A stretch of DNA of 64,000 nucleotides from Centroscyllium fabricii (lineage: Eukaryota): contig JBNRSN020000058.1 of NCBI GenBank assembly GCA_051313645.2, positions 806,001 through 870,000 on the forward strand. The letters are read 5' to 3'. The position numbers and the translations under genes were made by a program. The notes beneath the pieces are model-generated. The model had not been told where the DNA came from and ran no database searches. It saw nothing but the letters and a program-made list of their open reading frames with translations. Of the stretch, positions 5,269 through 64,000 are shown piece after piece (the stretch's first letter is position 1; every line of letters starts with the position of its first letter).

Positions 5269-5345
5269 TTTCAGCCATTCCAAGGTTTGTAATATTACAA
5301 AGAAACCAAATCAAGATGCAGTTGGTGCTCTAATGGTGTTCTGTA

Positions 5346-5676
5346 CAGGTTGAGCACTGGTAATCTGGCACCCGATGGTCCGGTACGAATCAAAATCGGC
5401 GGTCTTCAGTATGCGGAGCAGCCGCTCGGCGGCGTCACCGTTTCCCGCGATGGGTGGGCGAGCGCCGAGGGCTTCGGGCATTTGGGTTTCTGCTTTTTTA
5501 GGGCTAGTAAGTGTTCTATCACCGGGCTCCCTCCCCGGGAGTGTTCTACCCGCGCGCTCCGGACCCCAGGGAGTGTTCTACCCGCGCGCTCCCCCCGAAC
5601 CTTCAGTGGTTCGGAATTTTCAGTGGTCCGGCACCGAACTGGTCCCGAGGGTGCCGGATTACCTGTGCTCAACCTG
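5346..5676. mobile_element. pogo/Tigger-like MITE
   Basis: TA|caggttgagcactggtaatctggcaccc ... gggtgccggattacctgtgctcaacctg TIRs, with two internal ggggagtgttctacccgcgcgctcc units. Confidence 0.8.
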
Positions 5677-6167
5677 TTTCTACACACCTTTAACAAAATA
5701 TGCTATACAGACATGCTGGTGAGATCTAGTTGCAGAATTTCTACACGCCTCCATTTAAAAGAAAATATTATGTACACACTGACAAACAGTGCAATTTGGA
5801 AAGTTTGCATTTCAGTAACAAGAAAAAGCCGTAAGCACCAACTAGCCTGTGCCTTTTTTACTGATCAATCCGATATATTAGCCTGCTCACCATATTCCTC
5901 AATCCTTTTGCTTTCTGGAAGTTTCTATTGTGTCCAAATGAAATATCAGTTGGACCATATGTAACAATGGCTACTAGTCAAATACATGTTATATAACTTC
6001 CTCAGGATCTGTATTTCTGAACTGTATTGCTTTGCAGCATCGGTGTACAGTTTCAACAGAATCTACCAGGTATTACAAACCTTGGAGTGGCTGAAAACCG
6101 GTTCAGCTAATTACTGAGAGATCAACACAAATCTTAACTCAGTCCATTCATTAACTTAAATGCATAC

Positions 6168-20940: not shown

Positions 20941-22636
20941 CTAAATGTGGTACAATATTTAGTGAAACTGCTTATTGTTGCAAGACTAATATTTCATGAC
21001 CCTTACTCCAGCATTGTTTTTGCACAACACATAGTTAATGCTGTTTATAAGCCTCTCGCAATCACAATTCAATATGGCAATCCCTTTCAAACTTCTCATT
21101 TTGCCAATCAACAAACTGTTTTTAAAGCAACTGTCTTTTAGTTTCTCGAGAGAAAAATCATGACCGGACCAGCAGACCAGTGGAGTACACGTGAAACATA
21201 CTGCAAATCTTGGAGGGAATGCCTGGGACTTAAGATTTAAAATAGCTTAATGTTTGAGATGTGAAAGAGAAAATAGACAGGCTATTCCTACAATAGTTAT
21301 TTTTTTTTAAGAAGAATTCCTTTTTTTTTCAAACGGGGAAAATATATAGTTTCATTCAAATGCGAATCTAATATTCATTCGCCATCACCATCACGTCCCC
21401 TGTCTCTCATCATGTTGGCTCAGCCTTATTTCCAGACAAAAATAAACACTTTAAGACTTTACTTGTTTGTATTCCCCTCAGCAGTGTGCTACGCATCAGC
21501 AGCTAAAAACAAAGAAACTTTTAGCTGCTCAGACACAGTACAGAAGCGCCTTGAACAACGAACCAGGGGAGAACATTCACAAAGCCTGACAGTCCGTTCA
21601 ATGCGAACTTCAGGGCCATAATGCATTCCAAGTCCCTGCACTAATTAAATATGCATTTGCACAGCCCGATCGATGCGAGTCATGGATCGGGTGACACACC
21701 TGCGCATCTTGGGCCGAAAGCTCCCAGAGAAAACACAGCCGCCTCCTTATCTTTTTTCATAGGCTCTCGATTTCTTCACCCAGATAACTAATTTAATTCT
21801 CTCACCCTTCAGCGAAACTGGATTAGGAAAGTCAATACTTTCTTTGTGCTCTGATGGTGGATACTGTGCTTTTTATTCAGTTTTGACCTTTCGACAAAGA
21901 CAAGACAATGGCACTGGCTCCTACAGAGACCTGATGCTCCAGGTCTCACGGGGAAGTAAAATATAACAGAAAACAGAAACCCCGGCAGGTCTCCCCAGAC
22001 AGGTGCCCCCATCCCTGGGGAAGGTGAATAAAAATAATAAGATGCAAACTGTTTAGATCTATAAGCAATAAAATGGGTCTTAATATACCCCAGATGTAAC
22101 TCTCCGCCGTCAGCAAATATGGTTGGAATGATGTCACCATGAAATGATAACTACAGTACCACACAGTGAAACGATAACCGTCCTTGAATCTGTAATTATA
22201 GCACTGGATATTGCAAGCGATTTTTAAGCAAAAAGAAACCCACGCTAATTTTTAATGTATAGGTTGTTCCCGTGCTTCCTTTCTTGCTCCAGATTAAAAA
22301 CCAAGCCCCTGATACTGTCACAGGAAATGGGGCCTCTGCACGAGGCAGAGAGATGGGTCTTGAAAATAGAGAGATTTTACATGCTGCAGTCAGACCACAA
22401 TAGAAGCAAAAACAGAAACAGAATTCACGTCCAGAAGAGCCATCACACAGTGAGGTGCACAAGCCAAAGCCTGAATGTACATCCCATAAATTTTAAGGGA
22501 GGAGCACTTGTGATTGCGGGATGGGTGCTCTTTGCATTGTTGGCATTTTCGTAGTTCAATCTAAAATCAGGAACATTTTACTCACAGAAACAAAAGTCTA
22601 AAGATCAGCCAGTTTTACAGTAGGCACATAATAATA

Positions 22637-23017
22637 TATGTTGGGCACTGGTAATCCAGCACCCGATGGTCCAGCACCTTCAGTGGTCCTGCACGAAATC
22701 AAAGTGGCGGTCGTCAGTTTGCCAAGCAGCCGCTCGGCGGCGCCAGCATTTCCCCCGGTGCCAGCATTTCCCGCGGTTTGGTTTGCTGCTATTTTAGGTG
22801 TTCTATCCCCGGGCTCCCTCCCGGGGAGTGTTCCACCCGCATGCTCCGGCCCCGTGGAGTGTTCTACCCACGAGCTCCGTCCAGCATCTTCAGTGGTCCT
22901 TGGACTGTTCTACCCGCGCGCTGCGGCCACTTGGACTGTTCCACCCGCGCACTCTCCGAACCTTCAGTAGTTCGGAATTGTCAATGGTTCGGTGCCGGAT
23001 TACCGGTGCTCAACCTG
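22637..23017. mobile_element. pogo/Tigger-like MITE
   Basis: Decayed left TIR tatgttgggcactggtaatccagcaccc, right TIR ggtgccggattaccggtgctcaacctg|TA, internal gtgttctaccc units. Confidence 0.8.
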
Positions 23018-26000
23018 TACATATAAATTCTTCATGTGTCTTTATATAAAATGCATATGACCGTGTGCTGGAAGTAGGTTTTGTCATAATTTATTTTGTT
23101 GAAATTACTTCACAAATAAAAGCATCTGCTTAGATTCCAGCTAGGGCTGCAGTTAGGTGCTACAACTGGCCTCAATGCCCTTGGGCTAGGGCATTCCAGC
23201 TCCTGATTTCTATCCTGGATTCCTGTTGAAAAGAATCAAAGGAGCAAAACTCAGCTGTGATATCTCCCACTGTCAGATAGCCGGCTAATCCTTGCTGTGC
23301 ACATTTGCACATGGGTGACCACGTGGGCGAGGTACTGGATGGCAGTGGGACTGCACTGCAACAGAAGATAGCATCTTCAGAATGACTGGAACACAAATGG
23401 GGGCAAACCCTCCAAAGTAATGGTCTAGCTTTTTCTGACAGCATAGGAATTAGTTTCCACTGTTGCTAGTAAATAGATGATAAAAATAGCAGAGGAAATG
23501 TGCGTACCATGTAAGGTACCCAAAAAAGCCTGCAGTGAAAAGCTTTGAGGGTTGGTCTTCTTAAAAATGACGAGCTGATTTTGTAGTCCACAAGGAGAAG
23601 GCCAATCGGCAGATTAAATCGCTTTACATGGTCAATTGACTGAATAAACTGCACAGCGACTAGGCCACTCAAACACTTATTGCTGACTACCTGAGTCATT
23701 TGATGCCACCAAAATCAAGAACAGGATCTCAATGTCTTTGTTTGTTCAGACAACTAAGAAGCAGCTGAAGATTCAACAAATTTCTCTGCTTAGACTTGAT
23801 CATCTTTGTTACTTAGCTTTTTGTAGTTTCAGATGTGATGTAGAAATTTGGATAAAGATGCCATTCGGTCAATCTCACCTTTGCTGGTTCTCTGAAAGAG
23901 CTATCCACTTAGTCCTAATACCCTACCCTTTCTTCTTAGCATTTTATTAGAAGATAAGATGAAATTATTTTCTTAGACTAATATGGTTAAACCCTAATGT
24001 GCTTTGTTCTGATCACCCTGAATGTTACTTTAACAATAGGAGCAAGTTGCTCATCTTCCCACATATTGTACAGTACTGTGATTTTGTAATTTCAGTCGCA
24101 AGTTTTTTTTTTAAGTAAAACTATTTTAAAATGGTCTCAGGCAATCACCCCCCATTGTAGCTCAGTGGATAAATGGAGACTGCATGGTGCATCACTGTCC
24201 TTAGGTTAGGAATTGGAAAAATGAGGTTGGTCCCTAGCACAGCTCCTGATAATTATCCAGCAACCCTTAAAAGATGTTCAGGTGTGTGGGCACAGGAGAG
24301 AGTTTGGCTCAACTGTGATGATCCAAAAATCAAATAGCTAAACACTTGCTGTCCACTCTGGCCACTAGGGTGCAATATCAGAGAGTACCACCTAGAGTTC
24401 TTTCTTTTATTTTATTCGATCCGGGATGTGGGCATTGCTGGCAAGGCCAGCATTTATTGCCCATCCCCAATTGCCCTCGAGGTGGTGTTGGTGAGCCGCC
24501 TTCTTGAACTGCTGCAGTCAGTGTAGTAAAGGTACTCCCACAGTGCTGTCAGGGAGGGAGTTCCAGGATTTTGACACAGCGACGATGAAGGATTGGCGAT
24601 ATATTTTCAAGTCAGGATGGTGTGTGACTTGGAGGAGAACTTAGAGGTGGTGATGGACCGAATGGTTGACCAGTATCATTTGCAGGTCACATTCCTGTAT
24701 TTGGACAATGTCACGATCTGCGGCCATGACCAGCAAGATCATGATGCCAATTTGGACAGGTTTCTCCGTACGGCCCAGCGTCTGAACCTCATTTACAATG
24801 AGGATAAGTGCGTTTTCAACAATAACCAGTTGGCTATCCTCGGCTACGTGGATGAGAACGGGGTCCTTGGCCCCGATCCCGAACGTATGCGCCCCCTTCA
24901 GGAGTTGCCCCTTCTGCACTCCCCCAAAGCTTTGAGGAGATGCCTGGGGTTTTTCTCTTACTATGCACAATGGGTTCCCCATTATGCTGATAAGGCCCGG
25001 CCTCTCCTCGGGGCTACCTCCTTCCCGCTCCCGTTAGAGGCCCAAATTGCTTTTTCTCATATCAAGCAAGACATCATCAAGGCTACCATGCACGCCATTG
25101 ATGAGTCACTCCCCTTCCAGGTCGAAAGCGATGCCTCCGACTTCGCCCTGGCCGCCACCCTTAACCAGGCAGGCAGGCCCGTCACTTTCTTCTCCCGTAC
25201 CCTGCAGGGCCCTGAAGTCCGTCACTCTTCAGTGGAAAAGGAGGCCCAAGCAATCGTGGAAGCAGTGCGCCACTGGCGCCACTATTTGGCCGGTAAATGT
25301 TTTATCCTTCTTACTGACCAACGGTCAGTAGCGTTTATGTTCCACCATAAACAGAGGGGTAAAATCAAGAATGACAAGATCCTCAGGTGGCGGATCGAAC
25401 TCTCCGCTTTTGAGTACGATATTCTGTACCGGCCAGGGAAGCTTAACGATCCCCCGGACGCCCTGTCTCGAGGAACATCTGCCAGCACCCAGTCGGGTAG
25501 TCTGAACACCCTCCACGCTAATCTCTGCCACCCGGCTCGCTCACTTCGTCAAATCACGCAATCTCCCTTATTCCATTGCGGAGATCAAGGCGATGACGCA
25601 GGAGTGCCCTGTCTGTGCTGAGTGCAAGCCCCAGTTTTACAGGCCTGACAGAGCGCACCTCATCAAGGCCACCCGCCCATTCGAGCGCCTGAGTGTGGAC
25701 TTCAAAGGTCCCCTCCCCTCTACCAACCGTAACTCGTACATTCTCACTGTGGTCGACGAGTTCTCCCGTTTCCCTTTTGCATTCCCATGCCCAGATATGA
25801 CGAGTGCAACAGTGGTAAAGCATTTTATCACGCTATTCGCCATTTTCGGCCTTCCCGGCTTCATACACAGCGACCGGGGGGTCCTCATTTATGAGTGACG
25901 AGCTGCGTCATTTTCTGCTCGCGCGGGGGGGTTGCCTCAAGCAGAACGACCAGTTACAATCCCCGGGGGAACGGTCAGGTAGAACGTTATAATGGGACCA

Positions 26001-27200: not shown

Positions 27201-27468
27201 TGTGATGAACCTTTTTGGTGTGGTTCACACTGTACGGTTATTGTATATAGTTTCGTTTAATGTGTTTGTTATATATCTGTTAATATCTTTACCTTTCTGT
27301 AAGGACCTGTACCGGCTGACCCCGCCTCTGGGTACTAGTATAAAAGGAGAATGCTCCGCCCACTTATCTCTCATTCCAGGCAGGCTCATCGGGGACACGG
27401 TTCAGTTCCTTGTTAATAAAAGCCACTTATTTAAGAACTCGCTGCCGTCTTTGATTTGAGGCATCTCA
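27201..27468 (+). repeat. Gypsy 3' LTR (268 bp)
   Basis: TG...CA ends (tgtgatg...catctca) directly after the PPT, TATA-like tataaaa near 27339, aataaa near 27415. Confidence 0.85.
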
Positions 27469-30328: not shown

Positions 30329-31157
30329 AATGTATTGACAGACTAATGAGAAGATAATTGACAGAGAGGTGTGAAAATGCTATCAAACTCAGGTCACTCA
30401 AGCATCCGGGATTGCCAAAATTATCAAATGATTCCAGGACATCCAGTTTTTCAGGACTTTCAAGAAATCTTTCTCATCAGTACACTTGAGGCAGCATTTT
30501 CACAAGTTCGGACTAGACTAGTTAGATAGAGAAGTCCTATAATTAAGTCCTTCAGCCAAAATGCATTCTAATAAATCATGTCCAACATGGATTATTTAAT
30601 AAAAAATCACATCTGCAATTACGTGGACTTTAAGCTATGGGACTGGTGTTAACCATGATTTGTTAGGAAAGAAATAATCTCTGCAATTCATAACCACAAG
30701 TGTATTTTTTATATACGTTAATAAACTATTTCAAGAAAACTTAGACCATTTTGAATGACAAAATTTCTTTTTGCCTTGTGCTGCTCCACTAGTTTGTCCT
30801 ATGAGAGTAGAGAGGTCCTTCTCTGGGACATTCTCTGACATATGGCAACGCTATTAAAGAGTCCATCTAAAACACCTGCTCTGTGATATGTTCTTGAACA
30901 CAATGTTAAGCCCCATTCACACAGTAACTTAATTACTGAAGTAAAAACCAAATTTAAAATTCTGACAATCAGGGTATTGCAACTATCTGGGAGCGATGTT
31001 AACCCTTTAAAGGTGTTATGTCACTTTGTTGATTTTTACTCAAGTCCATGGTAATATTTCTGTTTTGTTTTACCAATTTCCTGCAGTAATTGTAGTAAAT
31101 GGCCCACGATGTTAATAGTTTAAACAGTGATGAAATATTTGCATTTGTGGTGAAATG

Positions 31158-32025
31158 CAGGTTGCGCACCGGAAATCCGGCACGGGTGGGACCAGGCCCG
31201 TGCCGGGAAAGTGAAAAAACCGGCAGAATGAAGTCGGTCAGTGCGCATGCGCGCACCATGCAAAATGGCCGAGCGCATACGCACAACATTGAAAGTGGCC
31301 ACCGAACGATGCAGGAAAAGTCCACAACTAGTCGTCCTCTGAAAGTGCACGGCACCCAATTTAAAAAGCGCCAGCCAGGTTTCTGGATGCCCATTGCCCC
31401 GAGAGAGCCGGGACCCCGGGAGCCGGGGGTGCAGAGGGGAGGCTGGCTTTGGGAGTTCACAGCAAAGGAGTAATTGATGTTGAGGGGGGCTGAGTGGGGC
31501 CATGTGTATGTGTGGATTGGTGCAGGGGGAGGGGGTGGGAGGGGAGCTATTTCTAGAGTGAGTGCTCACTGGATGTGTTAGTACTGCCGACACACGAGCC
31601 GGAGCTGTTCACTCACTCTGCCAGCCGCTCATCCACTGACTCCAGCAGCAGCAAAGCCGGGTAAGGAACTCCGCTCAACATTCCCATTCCCGGCTCCCGC
31701 ACAGGGCCAGCCTGCTCACCGGGAACCGTGCGCTTCCAGTTGTTTTATTTTCGCCCTGACGCCACGGAAGGCCCGGCGGCCGTTTTGAATGATCTGCGCA
31801 AGTGCTAGCCGTCCGGCGTCGCATGCGCAGATCATTCAAAACACCCGGCAGTCGTTTTGAATGATCTGCGCATGCGCTCGCCGTTCGGCGGCGCATGCGC
31901 AGATCATTCGTTGAAGCCGCGATCGCGGCTGCCATCTTGCGCATGCGCAGTGCAGTCGGGACAATTTGTTCCGGCAGACTGAAGCTGCCGGCGTTTCGGG
32001 TCACGGATATTCGGTGCACAACCTG
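31158..32025. mobile_element. pogo/Tigger-like MITE with GCGCATGCGC-rich body
   Basis: TIRs caggttgcgcaccggaaatccggcac ... cacggatattcggtgcacaacctg|TA. Confidence 0.75.
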
Positions 32026-33474
32026 TATATGTATTACTTTCACTCTGTGAAAGCAGAAATAATACAGGATATTGAATTGATATGGTAGGTAGGGTGCTAC
32101 CACATACCGCCACACAGTGATGGGATACAGAGCATTTGACTCCCTAAATGCCAAGTTTCAATCTTGAAAGGACATATTGGTGTATAAATTTGTCTTGGGT
32201 TGTAGCACAATGACGTCAATCGACAGAGTGTAAATCACTCATTTTGCGCTATCACCCAAGACACATTTATGCCCCCATGATCTGAAGCTGGCCACCTCCC
32301 ACAAGAGGGAAAAGGAACAAAATGGTGGCCGAGTCATCCCGGGTCACTCTTGCACTTCTCTCTTTGTTGTTTGAAAAAGACCAGCATTGGCAGAAGCCAT
32401 ACTTCTAGTTTTTCTTTTAACTTAGGAATGGCACGTGGCCTTGGAGACATATAGAGTGAGAAAACAAAATATGTGAGGAAGCTTTCAGATGATGAAAGGT
32501 ACCTGCTAATTACTCCATAACAACATCCTTCAGCTGCATGTAATTTTCTCTGTAAAGTGCTCACAGTTGTCTTTCTGTGAAGTTTAGCTCTTCAACTCAA
32601 ACACCAGTTACACTCCTATACAAATTGGACTCATTTATCAGGGATCAGGTTGGAAGAATGCATTTAACCTAGGGCTGTCCTCGGTGCAATATAATAGGAA
32701 CTCTTGTACAGTTTGGGAGAAAGGAGTTAGGTTGATGATGCTCCTTTACATTAGCCACACAAATATATGTAATAATTCACAGCCATCCAAATAGATATGC
32801 CAGGGAATAACTAATAAACACACGCTGAGGGGAAAAAAATTCATTCCGCTACGGGCTTTTCCAGCCTCTGGATCCTGTGCAACATGCACATATTCCATGT
32901 TCTCTATGCTAGCTTCAACTGATTACAGTGGTCATTTATGGACCATGTGGGAAATTAGGGAACTTTGAGAGCCTCTCAGCGTCATTAAAAGAATTCATTA
33001 TGCATGCAAGAACCATCTGTAGGGTGCAAGGGTCTACTCAGATGGCACGAGATTGTCTCAAAATAGAGATCTGTAATTCCATTTTATATTGTTTGATTTT
33101 CATAAGGAATTTTCTTTCTACATTTCACAGAATGTAAAAGAATTATATTTAGAGCTTAGCTACACAGCCAAGCAGCTTCTGAAAAACAGCGCAATGTTCA
33201 AAAAAAATTAAATTTTACATTATTAGCCTACTTTCAGCACGTAGACACAATCTGCTTATCAGCAGAGCATGACGGATTAGTCAAATCGAGACAACTGTTG
33301 AGAAGTTAAAAAAAAAATGAAACCAGTTATTTATAACAATTTTGTAAACTGCACTTTTCAAATTCACAGCTGCTGTGATCGCAGACTGTGCATGTTCCAG
33401 ACTCATTTCAGAAGAGACTAAGTAGGAGGTACAGAGCATTTGCCAGAACTGGAAAAAATTAAATCTTTGTTTAC

Positions 33475-48669: not shown

Positions 48670-49100
48670 CAGGTTTGATGATCCGGCCAGGCTCGGGGAA
48701 GCTCGCAGTGGCCAGGCTCCGTGAAGCTCGCAGCGGCCAGGCTCGGGGAAGCTCGCAGTGGCCAGGCTCGGGGAAGCTCGCAGCGGCCAGGCTCGGGGAA
48801 GCTCGCAGCGGCCAGGCTCGGGGAAGATCGCAGCGGCCAGGCTCCGCGAAGCTCGCAGCGGCCAGGCTCGGGGAAGCTCTCAGCGGCCAGGCTCAGGGAA
48901 GATCGCAGCGGCCAGGCTCGGCTCGGCCATTGTGAATGATCTGCGCATGCGCTCGCCGTTCGGCGGCGCTTGCGCAGATCATTTGCCGAAGCATCAATCG
49001 CGGTGGCCATTTTGCGCATGCGCGGGGCAGTCGGGCAAATTATTGCTGGACGTTCGAAGTTGCCGGTTTTTTGGGTGCCGGATTAACGAACTTCAACCTG
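48670..49100. mobile_element. pogo/Tigger-like MITE (right TIR clear, left end uncertain)
   Basis: Right end gggtgccggattaacgaacttcaacctg|TA. 48925-49040 is closely related to 56570-56770. CR1 remnants lie at 48318-48360 and 49103-49205. Confidence 0.6.
48684..48921 (+). repeat. 25-bp minisatellite, about 9.5 copies
   Basis: Unit cggccaggctcggggaagctcgcag with point variants. Confidence 0.95.
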
Positions 49101-50332
49101 TACTTAAAATCTATGCCCCCTGGTAATTGACCCCTCTGCTACGGGAAATAGGTCCTTCTGATCCACGCTATCTAGGCCCCTCATAATATTTTACACCTCA
49201 ATTAACTCCCTCCGACCAGCCCCCTAATTCAGAGGCACTCCAGCTCCTCATTACTCAGTCCAATCGCCATCCAATTCACAGAAGCATTCTCTCCCGTTCC
49301 AAGCCTCTTTGTTTATGCTGGCACTGACTCCTCCTCTTCCACAGTTAAAGCTAGCTCTCTTCTCTGCCATCAACTCCCCCACCCCTGAGTTCATACTGGC
49401 TCTACTCCTCCTTGACACCTACTCCCAAATTCAACCTTGCAATCTTGTTCTCACCCCCCCCCCCCCCCACTCCCTCAATTCAAGTGAAGGCTCTCCTGAT
49501 GTTCCAACTCCCCTGGGTCATTCTGGTACTCTTCTTCCTACCACCCCCCCTTCACCAGTTCAACCACTCACTCTTCATCCCTTTGCCTAACTTCATGCTG
49601 GCATTATTTCCTGCTCAGCTCTCAATCTACCTTTGTCATTCTGACACTCTCCGTCCCACAACCCTCGTTTAAGTGGATATTGCAAGACTCTGTGATAGCC
49701 AGACCTGAAGAAAGTCTGAGAAAATTCCACATGAACGACTGCCTCAGAAGCGAAGGGTGTTGCCTGTTTTAGGTAAAATTTGGAGTTCAATGAGGAATTG
49801 GCTAAAAGAGAGGAGCAGGGGGTACTGGTCAGGAGATAGATACTAGGCTGGGGAGATATACTGAGTGGAGTGTGTCCAAAGGATTGGTTCTGGGAAATGT
49901 ACTGAGTGGAATGTTTTGGGGATCGGTGCTGGGGAGATGTTCTGAGGGGGCGTCCAGTGTTAGGGAACTATACAGACAAGAGTGCCCTAGGGATCGGTGA
50001 TGGAGAGATGTATAAAGTGGAGCGCCATCTATGTATTCAGCAAGAAGGATTTAGTCCAGCAAGGGTTAACAATACATGTTAAGAGTTTCTCAGAATGGAG
50101 CTGGAATTTACAGACAGCTGTGTGAAATTTTACCTTATTGTATCAATGGAAACAAAAAGGAAGTTGGTCAGATATTTTCTCCGAAAAAGCTTCTTTCTGC
50201 TTACAAAATTTTTGTTTCTTCATGACTGTAATAAGAATAATTTAACTCAACATTTGGATTCTTGGAGTGTTTCTGATTCTTCTTCTTGAACACTGAATGG
50301 AGAATATTTTGGCCTGTCTGACATTGTATTAA

Positions 50333-52395: not shown

Positions 52396-52459
52396 AACGA
52401 TTTACAATTAGCATTATTTTGATGTCAAGGTTAACACTTTTAAGATAACAAGGTCAATA

Positions 52460-53209
52460 CAGGTTGAGCACCGGTAATCCGGCACCCGATGGTCTGGCAG
52501 CTTCAGTGGTTTGGCACGAATCGAAACCGGCGGTGCCAGCATTTCCCAGGCAGGGTGAGCGAGCGCCGAAGGCGTCGGGCGTTTTGGTTTCTGCTTTTTA
52601 GTGTTCTATCCCCATGCTCCCTCCGGGGAGTTTTCTACCACACGCCCCGGGGAGTGTTCTACTGCGCGCTCCGGGGAGTTTTCTACCACGCGCCCCGGGG
52701 AGTGTTCTACCGCACGCTCCGGGCCCCGGGGAGTTTTCTACCGCACGCTCCGGGGAGTGTTCTACCACACGCTCCGGGCCCCGGGGAGTGTTCTACCGCA
52801 CGCTCCGGGCCCCGGGGAATGTTCTACCGCACGCTCCGGGCCACGGGGAATTTTCTACCGCGGGCCCCGGGGAGTGTTCTACCGCATGCTCCGGGCCCCG
52901 GGGAGTGTTCTACCGCACGCTCCGGGCCCCGGGGAATGTTCTACCGTGGGCCCCGGGGAGTGTTCTACTGCACGCTCCGGGGAATGTTCTACTGCGCGCT
53001 CCGGGCCCCAGGGAGTGTTCGACCGCACCCTCCGGGGCCCGGGGAATGTTCTACCATGCGCTCCAGGCCCGGGGAGTGTTCTACTGCGCGCTCCGGGCCC
53101 CGGGGAGTTTTCTACTGCGCGTTCCCCCCGAACTTTCAGTGGTTCCGAATTTTCAGTAGTCCGGCACTGGCCTGGTCCCGAGGGTGCCGGATTAATGGTG
53201 CGTAACCTG
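52460..53209. mobile_element. pogo/Tigger-like MITE with expanded internal minisatellite
   Basis: TA|caggttgagcaccggtaatccggcaccc ... gggtgccggattaatggtgcgtaacctg|TA. 52601-53125 is an array of ggggagtgttctaccgcacgctcc(gggcccc) units of about 24 and 31 bp. Confidence 0.9.
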
Positions 53210-53325
53210 TATTGCATTAGAATAACGCTAATCTGGGAATCTATGCATTAGTATGTAAATTAGTTTACTTTTTTTTATGTATCAAAATTCTTTTTAGTTA
53301 CATTTCTTGCCACATCTGCTGCATT

Positions 53326-55298: not shown

Positions 55299-56508
55299 TG
55301 TACTGTCCCTTTAAAAATTGGCAGGCAGAAATTGTACATGTGTGTGTTTAGGGAGGGAGGATCTGTGTCCTTCCCTCTCTGCTCCCCTCCAGTGGGCTGC
55401 AGGCCGCAGAGTCAAAACAGTAGAAAGCAGCCTGCCAAGTCATCGAATCTTGAAATAATTAGCAGCATATGTAAGAGAACCTCAGGGTGACAGGGTAAGG
55501 AAACAGCCAAGAAAAACAAAGTGGACAATTCATTTTCTGCAAGCAAATTAAAAAATGTCATGCCTTGGGGCCCTCTGCCTACTCTGATTTAAAATAAGAT
55601 GGAAATAAATGAAAAGACTCTGAAATCTTACTCTATCTATATGGTGCTCACATAGCAGAGCGGCAGCTAGAGGAAAGGCTCATTGTGCAGCCATTATTGA
55701 AGCTGCAATCTCCACTTTAAATACACTGGATGGTTATCCAACTTAAGGTAACAGCAAAATTTTAAAGGTTTTAAATGAGAGAAGTTGACGGCAAAGACTA
55801 TTGAAGCAGCAGAGAGAAGGGGCTGATCTCTGTAAAACCAATATACAGAAGAACAAGGAAACCAGGGGATAAATGTTAGCAAAGCAAGAACCTCCATTTA
55901 TATGTTGCCTTATCACATCACTCAGAAACAACCCAAAACACTTCATACAGAATGAATTGGAGCCACTGTTGTAGGTAGGTGAACATGCCACAACTTTGCA
56001 CACAGCAGTGTCCACAAACAGCAAAAAGATTGTTGGTGATGTGGTTTAGGAAAGAATGCTGCTAGGACATGAGGAAGAATCACTGTTCTTTTTCAAATAG
56101 TGTCATGGAATCTGTAAAGTTCACTTGAACCATGTGCACAGACAAGTTTAACATTGCAATAGAAGGATGGAACATCTGACAATGCAGCACTCCCTCAGTA
56201 TGGCAGAAAGTGAGAATTGGGAGGCCCAAGGCCGGTCCAAAATTGGGCCATGGGCCTCATTAGTATTAAGTGGGCGAGCTTCCGGTGTCTGTTGTGCCTC
56301 CACAGGCAGCTCATCCATTTGCAGGAATGTCCCAGGAGGTGTGGGGAGGGGGGGTGGCAATGGGGCAGGGGGTGGCAATGGGGCAGGGGGTGTGGATGGA
56401 ATAGGGTGGAGTTAAGGGATCTAACCTTTGGGCACCTGTAAAATGGGGGCAACAAGGTCCAATTTCTACCACAACATCTTGAGTGAGAGCACTTTCTTCT
56501 TTCCAGTA

Positions 56509-56839
56509 CAGGTTGAAGACCGTTAATCCAGTAACCATTAAGCCGGCAGCTTCAGTCGTACCGGCATAAATTGCCCCGCCTGCACAAAATGGCCGCCACG
56601 ATTGATGCTTCGGCAAATGATCTGCGCATGCGCCACCGAATGGTGAGCGCATGCGCACAGCATTCAAAATGGCCGCCGGAACTTTTGAATGATCTGCACA
56701 TGCGCCGCCGAACGCATGTGCAGACCATTCAAAAGTTCCGGTGGCCATTTTGAATGCTGTGCGCATGCGCCACCGTGGCTTCAATCAGTCAGCGTAGGGT
56801 GCTGGTCCCGACCCTGCCGGATTAATGGTGTTCAACCTG
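56509..56839. mobile_element. pogo/Tigger-like MITE with GCGCATGCGC-rich body
   Basis: TA|caggttgaagaccgttaatcc ... ggattaatggtgttcaacctg. Confidence 0.8.
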
Positions 56840-57894
56840 CAATGTCAAAATATATATGAAATGTATTGAAATTATTTGCATATACTAGATTACTGATAAC
56901 TTGATTGCATTCTAATAAACCATTAGAAAATATGGATGAATACAACTATCAAAAATAACTGATATAATGTGAACTTATGAAATCCTATTGCTAGTTCACA
57001 CTGTATATATCGCTGATCTATTATTGTTCTGCAAGTGTCTTTAACATTCTTGCAACTGTCTCCTTGATTAGATTTTATGATTATTTTTCCTGTCAAATTC
57101 TGAGGCGTTGGATGAATTTAGGGAATGCTGACTTCATATTTTGAAATAAGCTGCAACGGTTCACACAAAGGATAGAAGGATAATGTATCTCCACAGAGAC
57201 ATGATCCCTTTACAAGGCCTCAACGTTCAGGATACAGTAAAGCTATGAAAATTCACCTCCAAATTTTGTTATAGATATCCAGCCTGTACATAAATGTAGG
57301 TGCTTGAAATGAACTGAATTAAAACGATAAATAACTGTGGAGAATGTAATTATTTATTTTAACACCAAGATAAGAAGGGACATAAATTTATCCCTGCTAG
57401 CAATGAGTAAATGCTGTGGTTTGTGTGTTTGTCCATTCAAACCCTTCCCTCCCCCACTCTGCAAAAATAATTTGGCTTCCTACATCTACCCTCATCCAGC
57501 CTGGAAACCTCCACGGACACAAATGTCTCATTTCACTTTAGCAGTGCAGTAAGTCTCCATTTCATGGTCACTTCCATCTACAAGCATGCACAATGATCTG
57601 GACAAGCTGGAAAAACCTCACCCTTTACTGAAAGCCTGCGTGGAACTTAGATCTTCTCATCAGAGGTACAACACTCACACAGCAACCACCATACTGTCAT
57701 TTATTTTAATCATTACAAATCATGTAAAACATGATTTTGAAAGTGGAAAACACAGATTTTGAAAGCAGAATGTAAAGTTCATCATGCAAGAATAAGAGAT
57801 TGTTTTGTGATGGATAGCAGATGACAGGTGTAAGGACCAAAATTATATGTGTCAATATTTCCTTCAAATAAATACAGATTTTGGCCATCCCCAT

Positions 57895-59517: not shown

Positions 59518-59808
59518 TGTGGTAACCCTTTTATGTAACTGTTTTACCACTGTATTATTGTGCCAATAATGGGCTGTGCAGATGTAAGGCACAGCCCTGT
59601 AACCTGTGTAATACTGTTGGGAGCCAGGTCAGCCACACCTCTAACTCCTCCCCCAGGTGAGGCCCTTTATAGGTGGAAACTGACCGAGGCTCCTCATTCC
59701 TGTACAGAAGTTCGTTCCGGAGGGTAGCTCCGTTCTTAGCTATTAAAAGCCTTTAGTTTCGGTAACTACTCGTCGACTCTTTTAATCTGAGATATTGACG
59801 ATACGTCA
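59518..59808 (+). repeat. Gypsy 5' LTR (about 291 bp)
   Basis: The start is fixed by identity to the 3' LTR start. The end at ...gatacgtca is inferred from the TG...CA rule and analogy with 27201-27468. TATA-like tttatag near 59666, attaaa at 59742. Confidence 0.75.
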
Positions 59809-59832
59809 ATTTTAATCGCTAAGTATTTCCAA

Positions 59833-60747
59833 ATGGAGAGCAGCGCAGTTAAACCTGAGAAGCTGGACATCAGTCCCCAGGACCTGGCCGCTGCTACCAC
59901 GTTCGAACACTGGTTCGGCCTCCTGGAGGCCTACATGGACGCCGCCAAGGCTACATCGGACAGGAACAAACTGCAGGTCCTCCAGTCGAGGATCTCCAGC
60001 AGGGTATTCTCCCTCATCAGAAACGCCTCAACCTACACAGCGGCTGTACTACAACTACGAAAATGCTACGAGCGCCCGGTCCATTCGGTCTACGCCCGAC
60101 ATGTGCTTGCGACCAGATCTCAGCTACCGGGTGAGTCCAATGAGCAGTTCGAGCAAGCGCTCCAGGCCCTGGTACGGGTCTGTGGCTGCCAAGCCAGAAC
60201 AGCTGAAGAGGCGGCGAATCTCCTCGTTCGGGACGCTTACGTTACGGGACTAAGGTGTGTGGAAACCCGCCAGCGGCGACTGGAGAAAGACAATCTATCC
60301 CTCGAGGAGGCGATTAAGATAGCCAACTCAGTAGAGGGGGGCCGAAACAAGTTACAGGCGTACAGCGGCACTAACCCGCAAGCCTACGACATATGGGCCG
60401 CGTCACAACGGGCCCAGGCCTGGGCAGCACCACAACGGGCCGAGACCCCCACGATGGCTGCGACAGCCACAAAAGATAAGCGCTGCTACTTCTGCAGCCA
60501 GGGACTGTACCCAAGAGCGAGATGCCCAGCCAGGATAGCGACCTGTGAGAGATGCGCTAAGAAAGGTCATTACGCTAAAGCCTGCAGATCAGCTCCAGCA
60601 GCGCCTAACCCAAGGTACAACAGTGCAGCCTGTGAGAGCACCGACAGACACCAGGTAAGCTGCAATAGCAGCGCGATCCAGCGACGGTCCGGGGGTAGAC
60701 AACAAGCGCCCCCATCTCCCACCCCCAACGCGGCCGGCTGTGTGTGA
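59833..60747 (+). CDS. Gypsy Gag (probably frameshifted near its end from an originally longer gag-pol)
   Basis: 304-aa ORF with zinc knuckles CYFC...RARCP and CERCAKKGHYAKAC. Confidence 0.85.
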   Translation: MESSAVKPEKLDISPQDLAAATTFEHWFGLLEAYMDAAKATSDRNKLQVLQSRISSRVFSLIRNASTYTAAVLQLRKCYERPVHSVYARHVLATRSQLPGESNEQFEQALQALVRVCGCQARTAEEAANLLVRDAYVTGLRCVETRQRRLEKDNLSLEEAIKIANSVEGGRNKLQAYSGTNPQAYDIWAASQRAQAWAAPQRAETPTMAATATKDKRCYFCSQGLYPRARCPARIATCERCAKKGHYAKACRSAPAAPNPRYNSAACESTDRHQVSCNSSAIQRRSGGRQQAPPSPTPNAAGCV

Positions 60748-61045
60748 ATCACGGGCACCGCCAACCCGACCACCGCGGCCCGCTGCGTGCGAATCACGGG
60801 CACTGCCAACCCGATCACCGCGGTCCGCTGCGTGCGAATCACGGGTGCCGCCAGCGCGCTCACAGCGGCCCACCATGTGCGACCCCCCGGCGACGCCATT
60901 TTGTATCCAGGGCCCCTCCATGTGCGAGCCAGGGGCGCCGCCATTTTGTATCCAGAGCCCCGCCATGTGCGGGCCAGGGGCGCCGCCATCTTGTATCCAG
61001 GGCCCCACCAGTGTGAGCCAGGGGCGCCGCCATCTTGTGTACAGC
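60730..61045 (+). repeat. 45-bp (15-codon) tandem repeats between Gag and protease, 7 units of two types
   Basis: gaatcacggg at 60746, 60791, 60836. gccatyttgt at 60895, 60940, 60985, 61029. The last spacing is 44 bp, i.e. a 1-bp deletion. Confidence 0.9.
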
Positions 61046-63249
61046 CCCGACCAGCAAGGGCTCCACGCACACGGAAACGCACGGCTGCGGCAGCCAGAAT
61101 CAGAGTGAACCAGGACAGGCCACATACCCTGTCTAACTCTATAATGCCAATTAAGATTAACGACTATACTGTTAACTGCCTTTTTGACACAGGAAGCACT
61201 GAGAGTTTCGTACACCCCGATACAGTGCAGCGCTGTGGACTGCAGGTCCGGCCCACTAACTACCAAGTCTCCCTAGCTTCACAGTCCCACACCGCGGACG
61301 TCACCGGCTACTGCTCCGTCACGCTCACCGTCAAGGGGCGCGTGTACCATAATTTTAAATTGTATACCCTCCAGCAGTTGTGTGCCCCAGCCTTACTAGG
61401 TTTGGATTTCCAGTGCCACCTCAAGAGCGTGACAATGGAGTTCGGCGGGACCTTGCCCCCCCTCACCGTCAGTAGCCGGGACAATCTCTTCCCAAAGCGG
61501 AGCCCGGCCTGCGGCCTCTCCACCCTGAAAATCGACACCCCCTCGCTGTTCGCCAACCTCGATCCGAAGTGCAAACCCATTGCTACAAAGAGTCGGCGGT
61601 ACAGTGAGGGGGATCGCACGTTTATCAGGTCGGAGGTCGGGCGGATGCTGAAGGAGGGGATAATTGAAGCCAGCACCAGCCCCTGGCGTGCCCAAGTTGT
61701 AGTGGTGAAGTCTGGCGAGAAACAGCGGCTGGTTATCGATTACAGCCAGACTATCAACCGCTACACCGGGCTCGATGCCTACCCCCTTCCCCGCATCTCA
61801 GACATGGTCAACCAGATCGCCCAGTACAAGGTGTTCTCCACGATCGACCTTAAATCGGCGTATCATCAGCTCCCGATTCGGAAAGCCGACCGCCCCTACA
61901 CCGCCTTCGAGGCGAACGGTCGGCTCTACCACTTCCTCCGGGTCCCCTTTGGTGTGACCAACGGAGTGTCAGTGTTCCAACGGGAGATGGACCGTATGGT
62001 TGACCAAAATGACTTGCAGGCCACTTTCCCTTACCTGGACAACGTGACCATCTGCGGCCACGACCAGCAGGACCACGATGCCAATCTGGCCAAATTCCTC
62101 GACACGGCGGACAAGCTGGACCTTACGTATAACAAGGACAAATGTGTCTTTAATACAGACCGGCTCGCCATCCTCGGATACGTGGTGGAGAACGGGGTCC
62201 TCGGCCCCGACCCACAGCGTATGCGACCCCTGCAAGAACTGCCCCTACCTCACAACCCCAAAGCCTTGAGGAGATGCCTAGGATTTTTCTCCTCTTATGC
62301 ACAATGGGTCCCACAGTTCGCAGATAAGGCTAGTAGACCACTCCTCAAGGCTGCCGTCTTCCCCCTTTCTGTAGAAGCCCAAACGGCATTTGCAAGGATA
62401 AAGGAAGATATTATCAAGGCGACCATGCTCGCTGTTGATGAATCCATCCCTTTCCAGGTGGAGAGTGACGCTTCGGACTTTGCCCTTGCTGCCACCCTGA
62501 ATCAGGCAGGCAGGCCCGTGGCGTTTTTCTCCCGCACCTTACAGGGACCCGAAACTCGCCACTCCACAGTGGAAAAGGAGGCCCAGGCCATCGTGGAGGC
62601 CGTGCGCTACTGGCGTCATTACCTGGCCGGTAAGCGTTTTACCTTGCTCACCGACCAACGGTCAGTGGCGTTTATGTTTAATAATAAACAACGGGGTAAA
62701 ATCAAGAATGATAAGATCCTGCGGTGGCGGATCGAACTCTCGACTTACGAGTACGACATTCTTTACCGCCCAGGTAAACTCAATGAACCCCCGGACGCAC
62801 TGTCCAGGGGAACGTGCGCCAGTGCCCAGCTAGACCGGCTGAAGGACCTCCACGACCGCCTTTGCCACCCGGGTGTCACCAGACTCGCCCACTTCGTCAA
62901 GTCCCGTAGCCTCCCCTACTCCATCACGGAGATCAAGGCTATGACCCGAGAGTGCCCTGTCTGCGCCGAGTGCAAACCCCACTTTTTCCGGCCAGACACG
63001 GCGCACCTCATTAAGGCCACCCGCCCCTTTGAACGTCTCAGCGTAGACTTCAAAGGCCCCCTCCCGTCCACCGACCGCAACTCATACTTCCTCACGGTAG
63101 TGGATGAGTTCTCCCGCTTCCCCTTCGCCTTCCCCTGCCCAGACATGACGAGCGCAACGGTGATCAAACACTTCACCACGCTGTTCGCCATCTTCGGTCT
63201 CCCCAGCTACATCCATAGCGACCGGGGGGTCATCGTTCATGAGCGATGA
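60787..63249 (+). CDS. Gypsy Pol (protease, RT, RNase H, integrase N-terminal part)
   Basis: LFDTGS protease, IDLKSAYHQ/VPFG/YLDN RT, ESDASD RNase H, H..LCHPG...CPVC zinc finger, DFKGP...HSDRG. The true start is uncertain. Confidence 0.9.
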   Translation: MRITGTANPITAVRCVRITGAASALTAAHHVRPPGDAILYPGPLHVRARGAAILYPEPRHVRARGAAILYPGPHQCEPGAPPSCVQPRPARAPRTRKRTAAAARIRVNQDRPHTLSNSIMPIKINDYTVNCLFDTGSTESFVHPDTVQRCGLQVRPTNYQVSLASQSHTADVTGYCSVTLTVKGRVYHNFKLYTLQQLCAPALLGLDFQCHLKSVTMEFGGTLPPLTVSSRDNLFPKRSPACGLSTLKIDTPSLFANLDPKCKPIATKSRRYSEGDRTFIRSEVGRMLKEGIIEASTSPWRAQVVVVKSGEKQRLVIDYSQTINRYTGLDAYPLPRISDMVNQIAQYKVFSTIDLKSAYHQLPIRKADRPYTAFEANGRLYHFLRVPFGVTNGVSVFQREMDRMVDQNDLQATFPYLDNVTICGHDQQDHDANLAKFLDTADKLDLTYNKDKCVFNTDRLAILGYVVENGVLGPDPQRMRPLQELPLPHNPKALRRCLGFFSSYAQWVPQFADKASRPLLKAAVFPLSVEAQTAFARIKEDIIKATMLAVDESIPFQVESDASDFALAATLNQAGRPVAFFSRTLQGPETRHSTVEKEAQAIVEAVRYWRHYLAGKRFTLLTDQRSVAFMFNNKQRGKIKNDKILRWRIELSTYEYDILYRPGKLNEPPDALSRGTCASAQLDRLKDLHDRLCHPGVTRLAHFVKSRSLPYSITEIKAMTRECPVCAECKPHFFRPDTAHLIKATRPFERLSVDFKGPLPSTDRNSYFLTVVDEFSRFPFAFPCPDMTSATVIKHFTTLFAIFGLPSYIHSDRGVIVHER

Positions 63250-63940
63250 ACTGCGCCAGTTTCTGCTCCAGAGAGGGGTTGCCACGAGCAGAACGACCAG
63301 TTATAACCCCCGGGGGAACGGCCAGGTAGAAAGGGAGAATGGGATCATTTGGAAGGCGGTCACCCTGGCTCTCAAGTCCAGGGGCCTTCCAGTGTCCCAT
63401 TGGCAGGCAGTCCTCCCAGACGCGCTGCACTCTATACGCTCTCTATTATGTACTGCTACTAACGCCACCCCGCACGATCTGATTTTCTCTTTCAACAGGA
63501 GGTCGACTTCGGGGACAGCTCTTCCTCCATGGCTGACGACTCCGGGGCCGGTTTTGCTTAGAAGGCATGTCCGGAGCCACAAGACAGACCCCCTGGTGGA
63601 CAAGGTACAGCTCCTACACGTGAACCCCCACTATGCATTCGTGCAGTTCCCGGACGGGCGTGAGGACACCGTGTCCATCAGGGACCTGGCTCCCGCAGGA
63701 AGCACCACCGCAGAGCCCCCGGCCGGCCAGCAGGCCGTTCAACCACCAGACACACGATGGCCCCTGCAGTGGCCTGCACTGAACTACGACCCGGACGGCG
63801 GGGACCAGCCAAGTCCATCGCCACCTGAAGCCACAGCACCGGCAGATGCGGGCGATTCGAACCAGGAGGCACCACCACCAACACCGGAACGGCGGCGGTC
63901 CTCCAGGCAGACACGACCGCCGGACAGACTTATCATGAAC
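63239..63940 (+). pseudogene. Integrase C-terminal part in the +1 frame
   Basis: MSDELRQFLLQRGVATSRTTSYNPRGNGQVERENG...DGREDTVSIRDLAP continues after a G6 run at 63224-63229. Confidence 0.8.
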
Positions 63941-64000
63941 TGTTCGACCCATTCACCCCCCCAGGACTTAAAATTTTCAAGAAGGGGTGAATGTGGTAAC

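Follow-up and report, generated by a model that had tools for sequence, protein, structure and literature searches.

Organization of the element

The DNA analysed here is a 64,000-nucleotide stretch of the shark Centroscyllium fabricii (the window), whose right end contains most of a Ty3/Gypsy retrotransposon with TG...CA LTRs, a polypurine tract and the gene order gag then PR-RT-RH-IN (Table 1). The window copy is defective, with a stop near 60745 and frame changes in IN; other copies have single frames of about 1,420–1,450 codons. Among named proteins, those of sharks and rays are closest; others, more distant, come from sea anemone, mussel and nematode, and a Mytilus protein is among the matches. 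The two LTRs of the window copy (59518–59700 in the 5′ LTR; L031:192-380 in the 3′ LTR) are of different U3 types, which suggests recombination of two elements, and the 3′ LTR is cut short by unrelated DNA.

Table 1. Features of the Gypsy element and of its sister family in the window.
Feature	Coordinates	Strand	Remarks
5′ LTR, TG...CA, 291 nt	59518..59808	+	copies diverge just beyond both ends
TATA-like box	59668..59673	+	28 nt upstream of initiator A
Initiator motif	59694..59699	+	A59696 is the putative transcription start and primer 5′ end
Putative self-primer (53-nt RNA 5′ leader)	59696..59748	+	covalent primer role putative
LTR arm of the stem	59735..59748	+	3′ end of the putative primer; includes ATTAAA
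Conserved G/A-C-C 3′ of the arm	59749..59751	+	putative cut site immediately upstream
Unpaired spacer base A	59809..59809	+	3′ of the LTR-terminal CA
Primer-binding site	59810..59823	+	complementary to the element's own LTR
gag-PR-RT-RH-IN region	59833..63940	+	two zinc knuckles, no chromodomain; broken copy
Polypurine tract	63980..63991	+	
3′ LTR start	63992..64000	+	runs beyond the window; truncated at about 190 nt
Sister-family 3′ LTR	27201..27468	+	initiator A 27373; stem arm end 27421

The RT active site (62032–62043) reads YLDN in place of YxDD in the translation of the window copy, and, in the gag–protease interval (60750–61050), tandem repeats of 33 and 45 nt vary among copies. Elsewhere in the window there are dispersed repeats with inverted termini and GC-rich internal tandem arrays (52455–53214, 5341–5681, 22632–23022, 31153–32030, 48924–49109 and 56500–56844), which are probably non-autonomous DNA transposons. 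No tRNA gene was found within the 64-kb window.

LTR boundaries and the primer-binding site

Because the 3′ LTR of the window copy is truncated, the end of the LTR was fixed from other copies (e.g. L093–L095, L099–L102, L104–L107). Their 3′ and solo LTRs diverge straight after the CA at 59807–59808, which fixes the boundary at 59808, the point from which an earlier sequence-only reading had started. That reading had remarked that no tRNA primer site begins here, and this is borne out: there is no TGG 3′ of the LTR end in the window copy, and none within 5 bases 3′ of the LTR in any of the 29 families compared below. Past the spacer base comes a stretch that had been described as complementary to the LTR itself, and the two segments (59735–59748 and 59810–59823) indeed match as reverse complements, with 13 of 14 positions pairing. 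None of 3,000 dinucleotide-shuffled LTRs gave 13 pairs; the best result was 12, three times. Most copies pair at 13–14 positions. The T at 59741 in the window copy is rare and uncompensated (19 genome matches, with a primer-binding site base of C in 15, T in 3 and A in one that belongs to another family), and the window copy's mismatch is a sporadic mutation.

The same reading predicted a matching site in full-length relatives of the sister LTR. Among 30 sister loci there are two in which a 5′ LTR is followed by gag, and both carry the site, one exact over 13 bases and the other at 12 of 13.

In the predicted minimum-energy fold the stem is present with pair probabilities of 0.59–1.0, and the fold of the entire leader is no more stable than those of shuffled sequences (z −0.84). 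The LTR terminus (59797–59808) contains a small self-complementary stretch, similar in several relatives, which may be a U5 stem; the predicted leader fold lacks it. A second partial complement of the stem arm lies in U5 (59779–59788; 10–11 bases in several copies), and the two could form an alternative hairpin that is present in the 3′ LTR too.

Covariation of the two arms

Compensatory changes between the two segments, which the sequence-only reading had made the test of its proposal, are present at three depths: among subfamilies, among families and among distant animals. In the genome-wide count for the window family 12,635 junctions have C in the primer site, and a second subfamily, in which an LTR A is matched by a site T, has 9,849 copies versus 286 with the mismatch of LTR A and site C; more than 22,000 junction-bearing copies of the family are in the genome. 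Single-copy changes on one arm are mostly without a mirror change on the other, which would be expected of post-insertion mutations and is uninformative.

Across the 29 families, of which 8 are own-genome and the other 21 were drawn from contigs of metagenomes and MAGs, pairing at positions 1–11 of the stem holds in 317 of 319 cells, compared with a mean of 214 and a maximum of 244 in 20,000 permutations of partners; this set was picked for stems of at least 10, with four added by eye, and informs covariation, not prevalence. For prevalence, a set assembled without stem selection was used: 76 non-own loci gave 29 strand rows with a flanking repeat, from which 10 with an undefinable end and one that was the wrong orientation of an element already represented were removed. 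All 18 remaining elements (about 9 families, with two rows identical and LTR ends defined by the repeats) pair at 11–13 of 13 positions, and a control segment 3′ of the 3′ LTR pairs at 8–9 in 17 and at 11 in one. With the LTR end thus fixed independently, none of the 18 has TGG at the start of the site.

The register of the stem is constant: the terminal CA is followed by one unpaired base and TTT:AAA pairing from +2, and the arm in the LTR is followed by G/A-C-C. The spacer base is A in 25 of 29 families and paired in none. The first post-arm base is G or A in 27 of 29 families, the next two are C in 25 and 26 of 29, and this trinucleotide never pairs with the spacer.

If the stem served solely to mask the 5′ poly(A) signal or in packaging, the primer could be an unrecognised host RNA or tRNA fragment, a reading that we regard as very unlikely. 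It draws on the presence of AATAAA or ATTAAA in the arm of all eight own-genome families and on the predicted unpaired probability of the hexamer, which is 0–0.16 in the 5′ context and mostly 0.2–0.34 for R-U5 alone. However, a canonical hexamer is in the arm of 17 of 29 families (9 of 21 non-own), and two of the other 12 have one elsewhere. Furthermore, the primer site has 24 different 11-mers in the 29 families and in each follows the LTR of its own element, behaviour that one set of host RNAs would not show and that argues against an internal tRNA half-molecule as the partner; no site starts with TGG; and masking needs no register fixed to the LTR end. The sequence-only reading had offered the stem as source of the primer, as a means of hiding the 5′ LTR poly(A) signal, or both; the first part is supported, but the second is not a clade-wide reason for the stem, with 12 of 29 families having no canonical hexamer in it. 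Cover of the 5′ LTR poly(A) signal is nonetheless plausible as a second use in the own-genome families.

It is scarcely credible that the inverted repeat is a neutral by-product of template switching by fold-back, occasionally regenerated, even though capture by fold-back lengthens the pairing in some copies (L234, L239) and may account for stems of 15–19 bases. Compensated variants dominate whole subfamilies, as the 9,849 to 286 ratio illustrates, the design is retained in relatives with 51–66% identity in RH-IN, and the element would still need a primer. No high-copy active subfamily whose stem is broken was seen.

Position of the transcription start

A TATA-like motif is located 80–94 nt upstream of the end of the stem in six of the eight own-genome families, and an initiator motif 49–56 nt upstream in seven. 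From this spacing the transcript is predicted to start at A59696 (A27373 in the sister family), about 40 nt before the pairing segment. Contigs from two sequencing runs revealed neither transcript starts nor transcript ends.

This would differ from the arrangement in Tf1, in which, in the available text of PMC7175516, the RNA's first 11 bases pair and the cut falls between bases 11 and 12. An equivalent arrangement in the shark element would need a second start at the 5′ edge of the stem that yields a primer of 11–14 nt, with the longer leader belonging to other transcripts. In 27 of 29 families an A or T at −11 is followed by G at −10, which is initiator-like; pairing fades past 13–16 bases; and the 11-base core of one non-own LTR is preceded by only 39 nt of LTR sequence. 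Such a short primer may hold for the invertebrate relatives. It is improbable for the shark families, in which the promoter motifs are located well upstream of the stem and fold-back tails (see below) read through to the upstream initiator.

Several invertebrate LTRs (L138, L154, L166, L170, L182) have a pyrimidine tract and CAG resembling a splice acceptor 15–35 nt upstream of the stem, and weaker look-alikes are present in the window at 59640–59660 and 59690–59708.

Fold-back junctions

In a small number of copies the primer site continues past the stem as inverted LTR sequence. There are 84 such fold-back junctions in the window family (family 1) and 38 in the sister family, all of which were retrieved and their end points measured; the search patterns detect tails of at least about 19–24 nt. 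The 84 family 1 tails include 25 ending at 59699–59725, 30 at 59694–59698 and 6 in the following 75 bases, and the remainder end deeper in U3, including 16 at the LTR start. With shared events collapsed, distinct ends per base in family 1 are 0.70 before the initiator, 1.6 at it and 0.08 and 0.06 beyond, and in the sister family 0.15, 0.8, and 0.04 and 0, respectively; these rates were relied on over a binomial test (21 vs 3, uniform null). Tail ends thus fall about tenfold past the initiator A in both families. Availability of microhomology does not explain the drop, since it is about equal in U3 (7-mers at 38 of 175 positions) and before the start (9 of 27).

The tails ending at the initiator represent eight distinct events in family 1 and four in the sister family. 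In family 1, 23 of the 30 land at one site in gag, where microhomology extends over 7–8 bases. These 23 may go back to few events, although they carry at least four LTR haplotypes; two further landing sites use identical terminal bases. Most of the stopped tails pick up again in plus-strand gag or pol sequence. Since the RNA is the only plus-sense molecule that would begin at the initiator, these tails were most likely copied from the RNA 5′ end, continuous with the junction of U5 and primer.

For tails reaching the LTR start the preferred interpretation is a snap-back of plus-strand strong-stop DNA, and such tails do not by themselves diagnose self-priming. Exact 5-bp target duplications accompany them in 5 of 5 and in 9 of 14 cases (flanks are shared by three sister rows), so these fold-back events arose before integration. 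Divergence between a tail and its own LTR is 1.2%, 1.4% and 2.6% by tail class, and haplotypes match equally throughout, which does not separate models with an attached primer from those with a second RNA.

Two other groups of copies have unusual junctions. In L233, L236, L237, L244 and 19 more loci the full inverted leader is joined to gag at about 59960, and this group may represent a non-autonomous lineage whose stem is 53 bp long. In L242, L250, L293, L333 and L334 the tails turn at a short palindrome at 59700 and repeat R-U5, generating tandem fold-backs.

Polymorphism along the LTR is also informative. In 94 LTRs the U3 sites, 59733 and 59759 are linked (r2 0.74–0.96), and linkage of U3 to 59788 and 59792 drops to r2 0.33 and 0.11; the sample is biased by the choice of query and the U5 sites touch CpGs, such that this is supporting evidence only. 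The drop is consistent with a jump between strands on the downstream side of the stem and a short overlap containing 59759.

These data bear on whether the 3′ copy of R could be the primer, with the far end of the RNA cut between AAAA and GCC and paired with the primer-binding site so as to circularise the RNA. Such a primer requires identical pairing and covariation, and it is the better fit for the 3 of 38 sister tails that do not end at the LTR start but go on into polypurine-tract or internal sequence. We nevertheless consider it unlikely. The 3′ copy is continuous with U3 and its tails should pass the initiator, where the ends instead fall about tenfold in both families, and most of the long tails terminate where the LTR begins and carry target duplications, as in plus-strand strong-stop snap-back. 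It also predicts that 59733 and 59759 travel with U5, whereas they are observed to travel with U3 (r2 0.74–0.77 vs 0.11–0.33).

A proposed model for self-priming

The element's own RNA is the likely primer of minus-strand DNA synthesis, through a 5′ leader of 49–56 nt. Self-priming had been put forward as a candidate in the sequence-only reading, and it gains support from the covariation of the arms and from fold-back tails that end at the predicted transcription start. The primer is probably the whole leader with its last 13–14 bases paired, and not the first 11 bases as in Tf1.

In the proposed sequence of events the RNA would start at the initiator A59696 and its bases 40–53 would pair with the primer-binding site. 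A cut between AAAA and GCC, presumably by the element's RNase H, would then free a 5′ fragment of ~53 nt as primer; an RNase H domain is present, and both the cut and the choice of enzyme are borrowed by analogy from Tf1. Second-strand transfer would normally keep only the paired 13–14 bases, and in rare cases more of the leader would be copied and captured, corresponding to the 84 fold-back junctions versus 12,635 normal ones. In this model the tails would have been templated by the attached primer, although nascent plus strands that switched onto a second RNA's 5′ end would leave the same footprint.

Taken further, the proposal is that a widespread clade of non-chromovirus animal Gypsy elements evolved self-priming separately from Tf1, with a capped leader of ~50 nt, cut behind the poly(A) signal, as the primer. 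One stem would then prime, mask the 5′ poly(A) signal, set the overlap for strand transfer and free the element from host tRNA (and from silencing by tRNA fragments). We lean towards this broader proposal, with confidence a little above even.

Comparison with known and predicted self-primed elements

The Ty3/Gypsy elements described as self-primed in the available texts of PMC7175516, PMC5341516 and PMC4600332 are Tf1 and Tf2 of Schizosaccharomyces pombe and Tj1 of S. japonicus. These share with the shark element the absence of a tRNA site, complementarity to their own LTR and the need for a cut to free the primer. As in Tf1-type elements, a complement of at least 10 bases to the clade's own LTR lies 0–5 bp 3′ of the LTR. 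The shark element differs in that its pairing segment lies about 40 nt into the predicted transcript and the duplex is 13–14 bp or more; to judge from the promoter motifs and tail ends, the segment would not be the transcript's first 11 bases. Its stem often covers a poly(A) signal and its putative primer is 49–56 nt, unlike that of Tf1. Self-priming of Tf1 is proven by experiment, whereas that of the shark element is read from sequence alone.

Self-priming is also predicted, in the available text of PMC6317226, for Tf1/sushi chromoviruses of fungi and vertebrates, for plant Tcn1 and for plant TAR copia elements. Like the shark clade, these have LTR complementarity within 0–5 bp of the LTR end, and vertebrates are among their hosts (PMC6317226). 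By domain content, however, the shark element is not a chromovirus. No chromodomain or SH3_Tf2-1 domain was found in seven of seven full-length relatives or in the IN tail of the window copy at E up to 0.5, and none is among the precomputed domains of 120 of 120 proteins among the matches listed. In RH-IN it has 23–35% identity to 10 of 12 same-genome SH3_Tf2-1 loci (two gave no match) versus 51–66% to stem-bearing relatives. Without a chromodomain, the clade looks like an independent origin of self-priming. The sequence-only reading had mentioned self-primed Gypsy families in animals, which matches the Tf1/sushi chromoviruses but no described family of the non-chromovirus clade: the literature searched, which excluded subscription journals and Repbase reports, has no account of self-priming there.

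In that literature, as far as the available texts extend, self-priming is proven only for Tf1 and is tied to chromovirus relatives and one plant copia lineage. The shark case points to a further origin, in a very abundant clade of vertebrates and invertebrates, and what would be new relative to Tf1 is a long leader that pairs internally as the primer. In both families the counted tail ends drop steeply at the initiator. Fold-back fossils of this kind predict exact RNA ends, and with them primer and start site could be mapped using nothing but the genome sequence. LTR finders that require a tRNA site will misjudge the clade.

Animal Gypsy contigs of the stem-bearing clade are present in bacterial MAG assemblies (L175–L183), probably as host contamination; no relative of the element was found in the viral contigs searched.

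Other animal Gypsy elements provide further comparisons. The Cigr-1 clade of Ty3/Gypsy elements from a tunicate and molluscs resembles the shark element, by description only, in being animal and non-chromovirus, and the available text of PMC6238403 makes no mention of a primer-binding site or primer. Saci-2/lennie of flatworms are animal Gypsy elements with a single gag-pol frame like the shark clade, but in the available texts they have tRNA-complementary sites and mostly 4-bp target duplications (PMC12471100, PMC4558846), neither of which applies to the shark clade, with its 5-bp duplications. Those of the sister solo LTRs (L033–L059) start with GT in 9 of 11 cases, a possible target preference.
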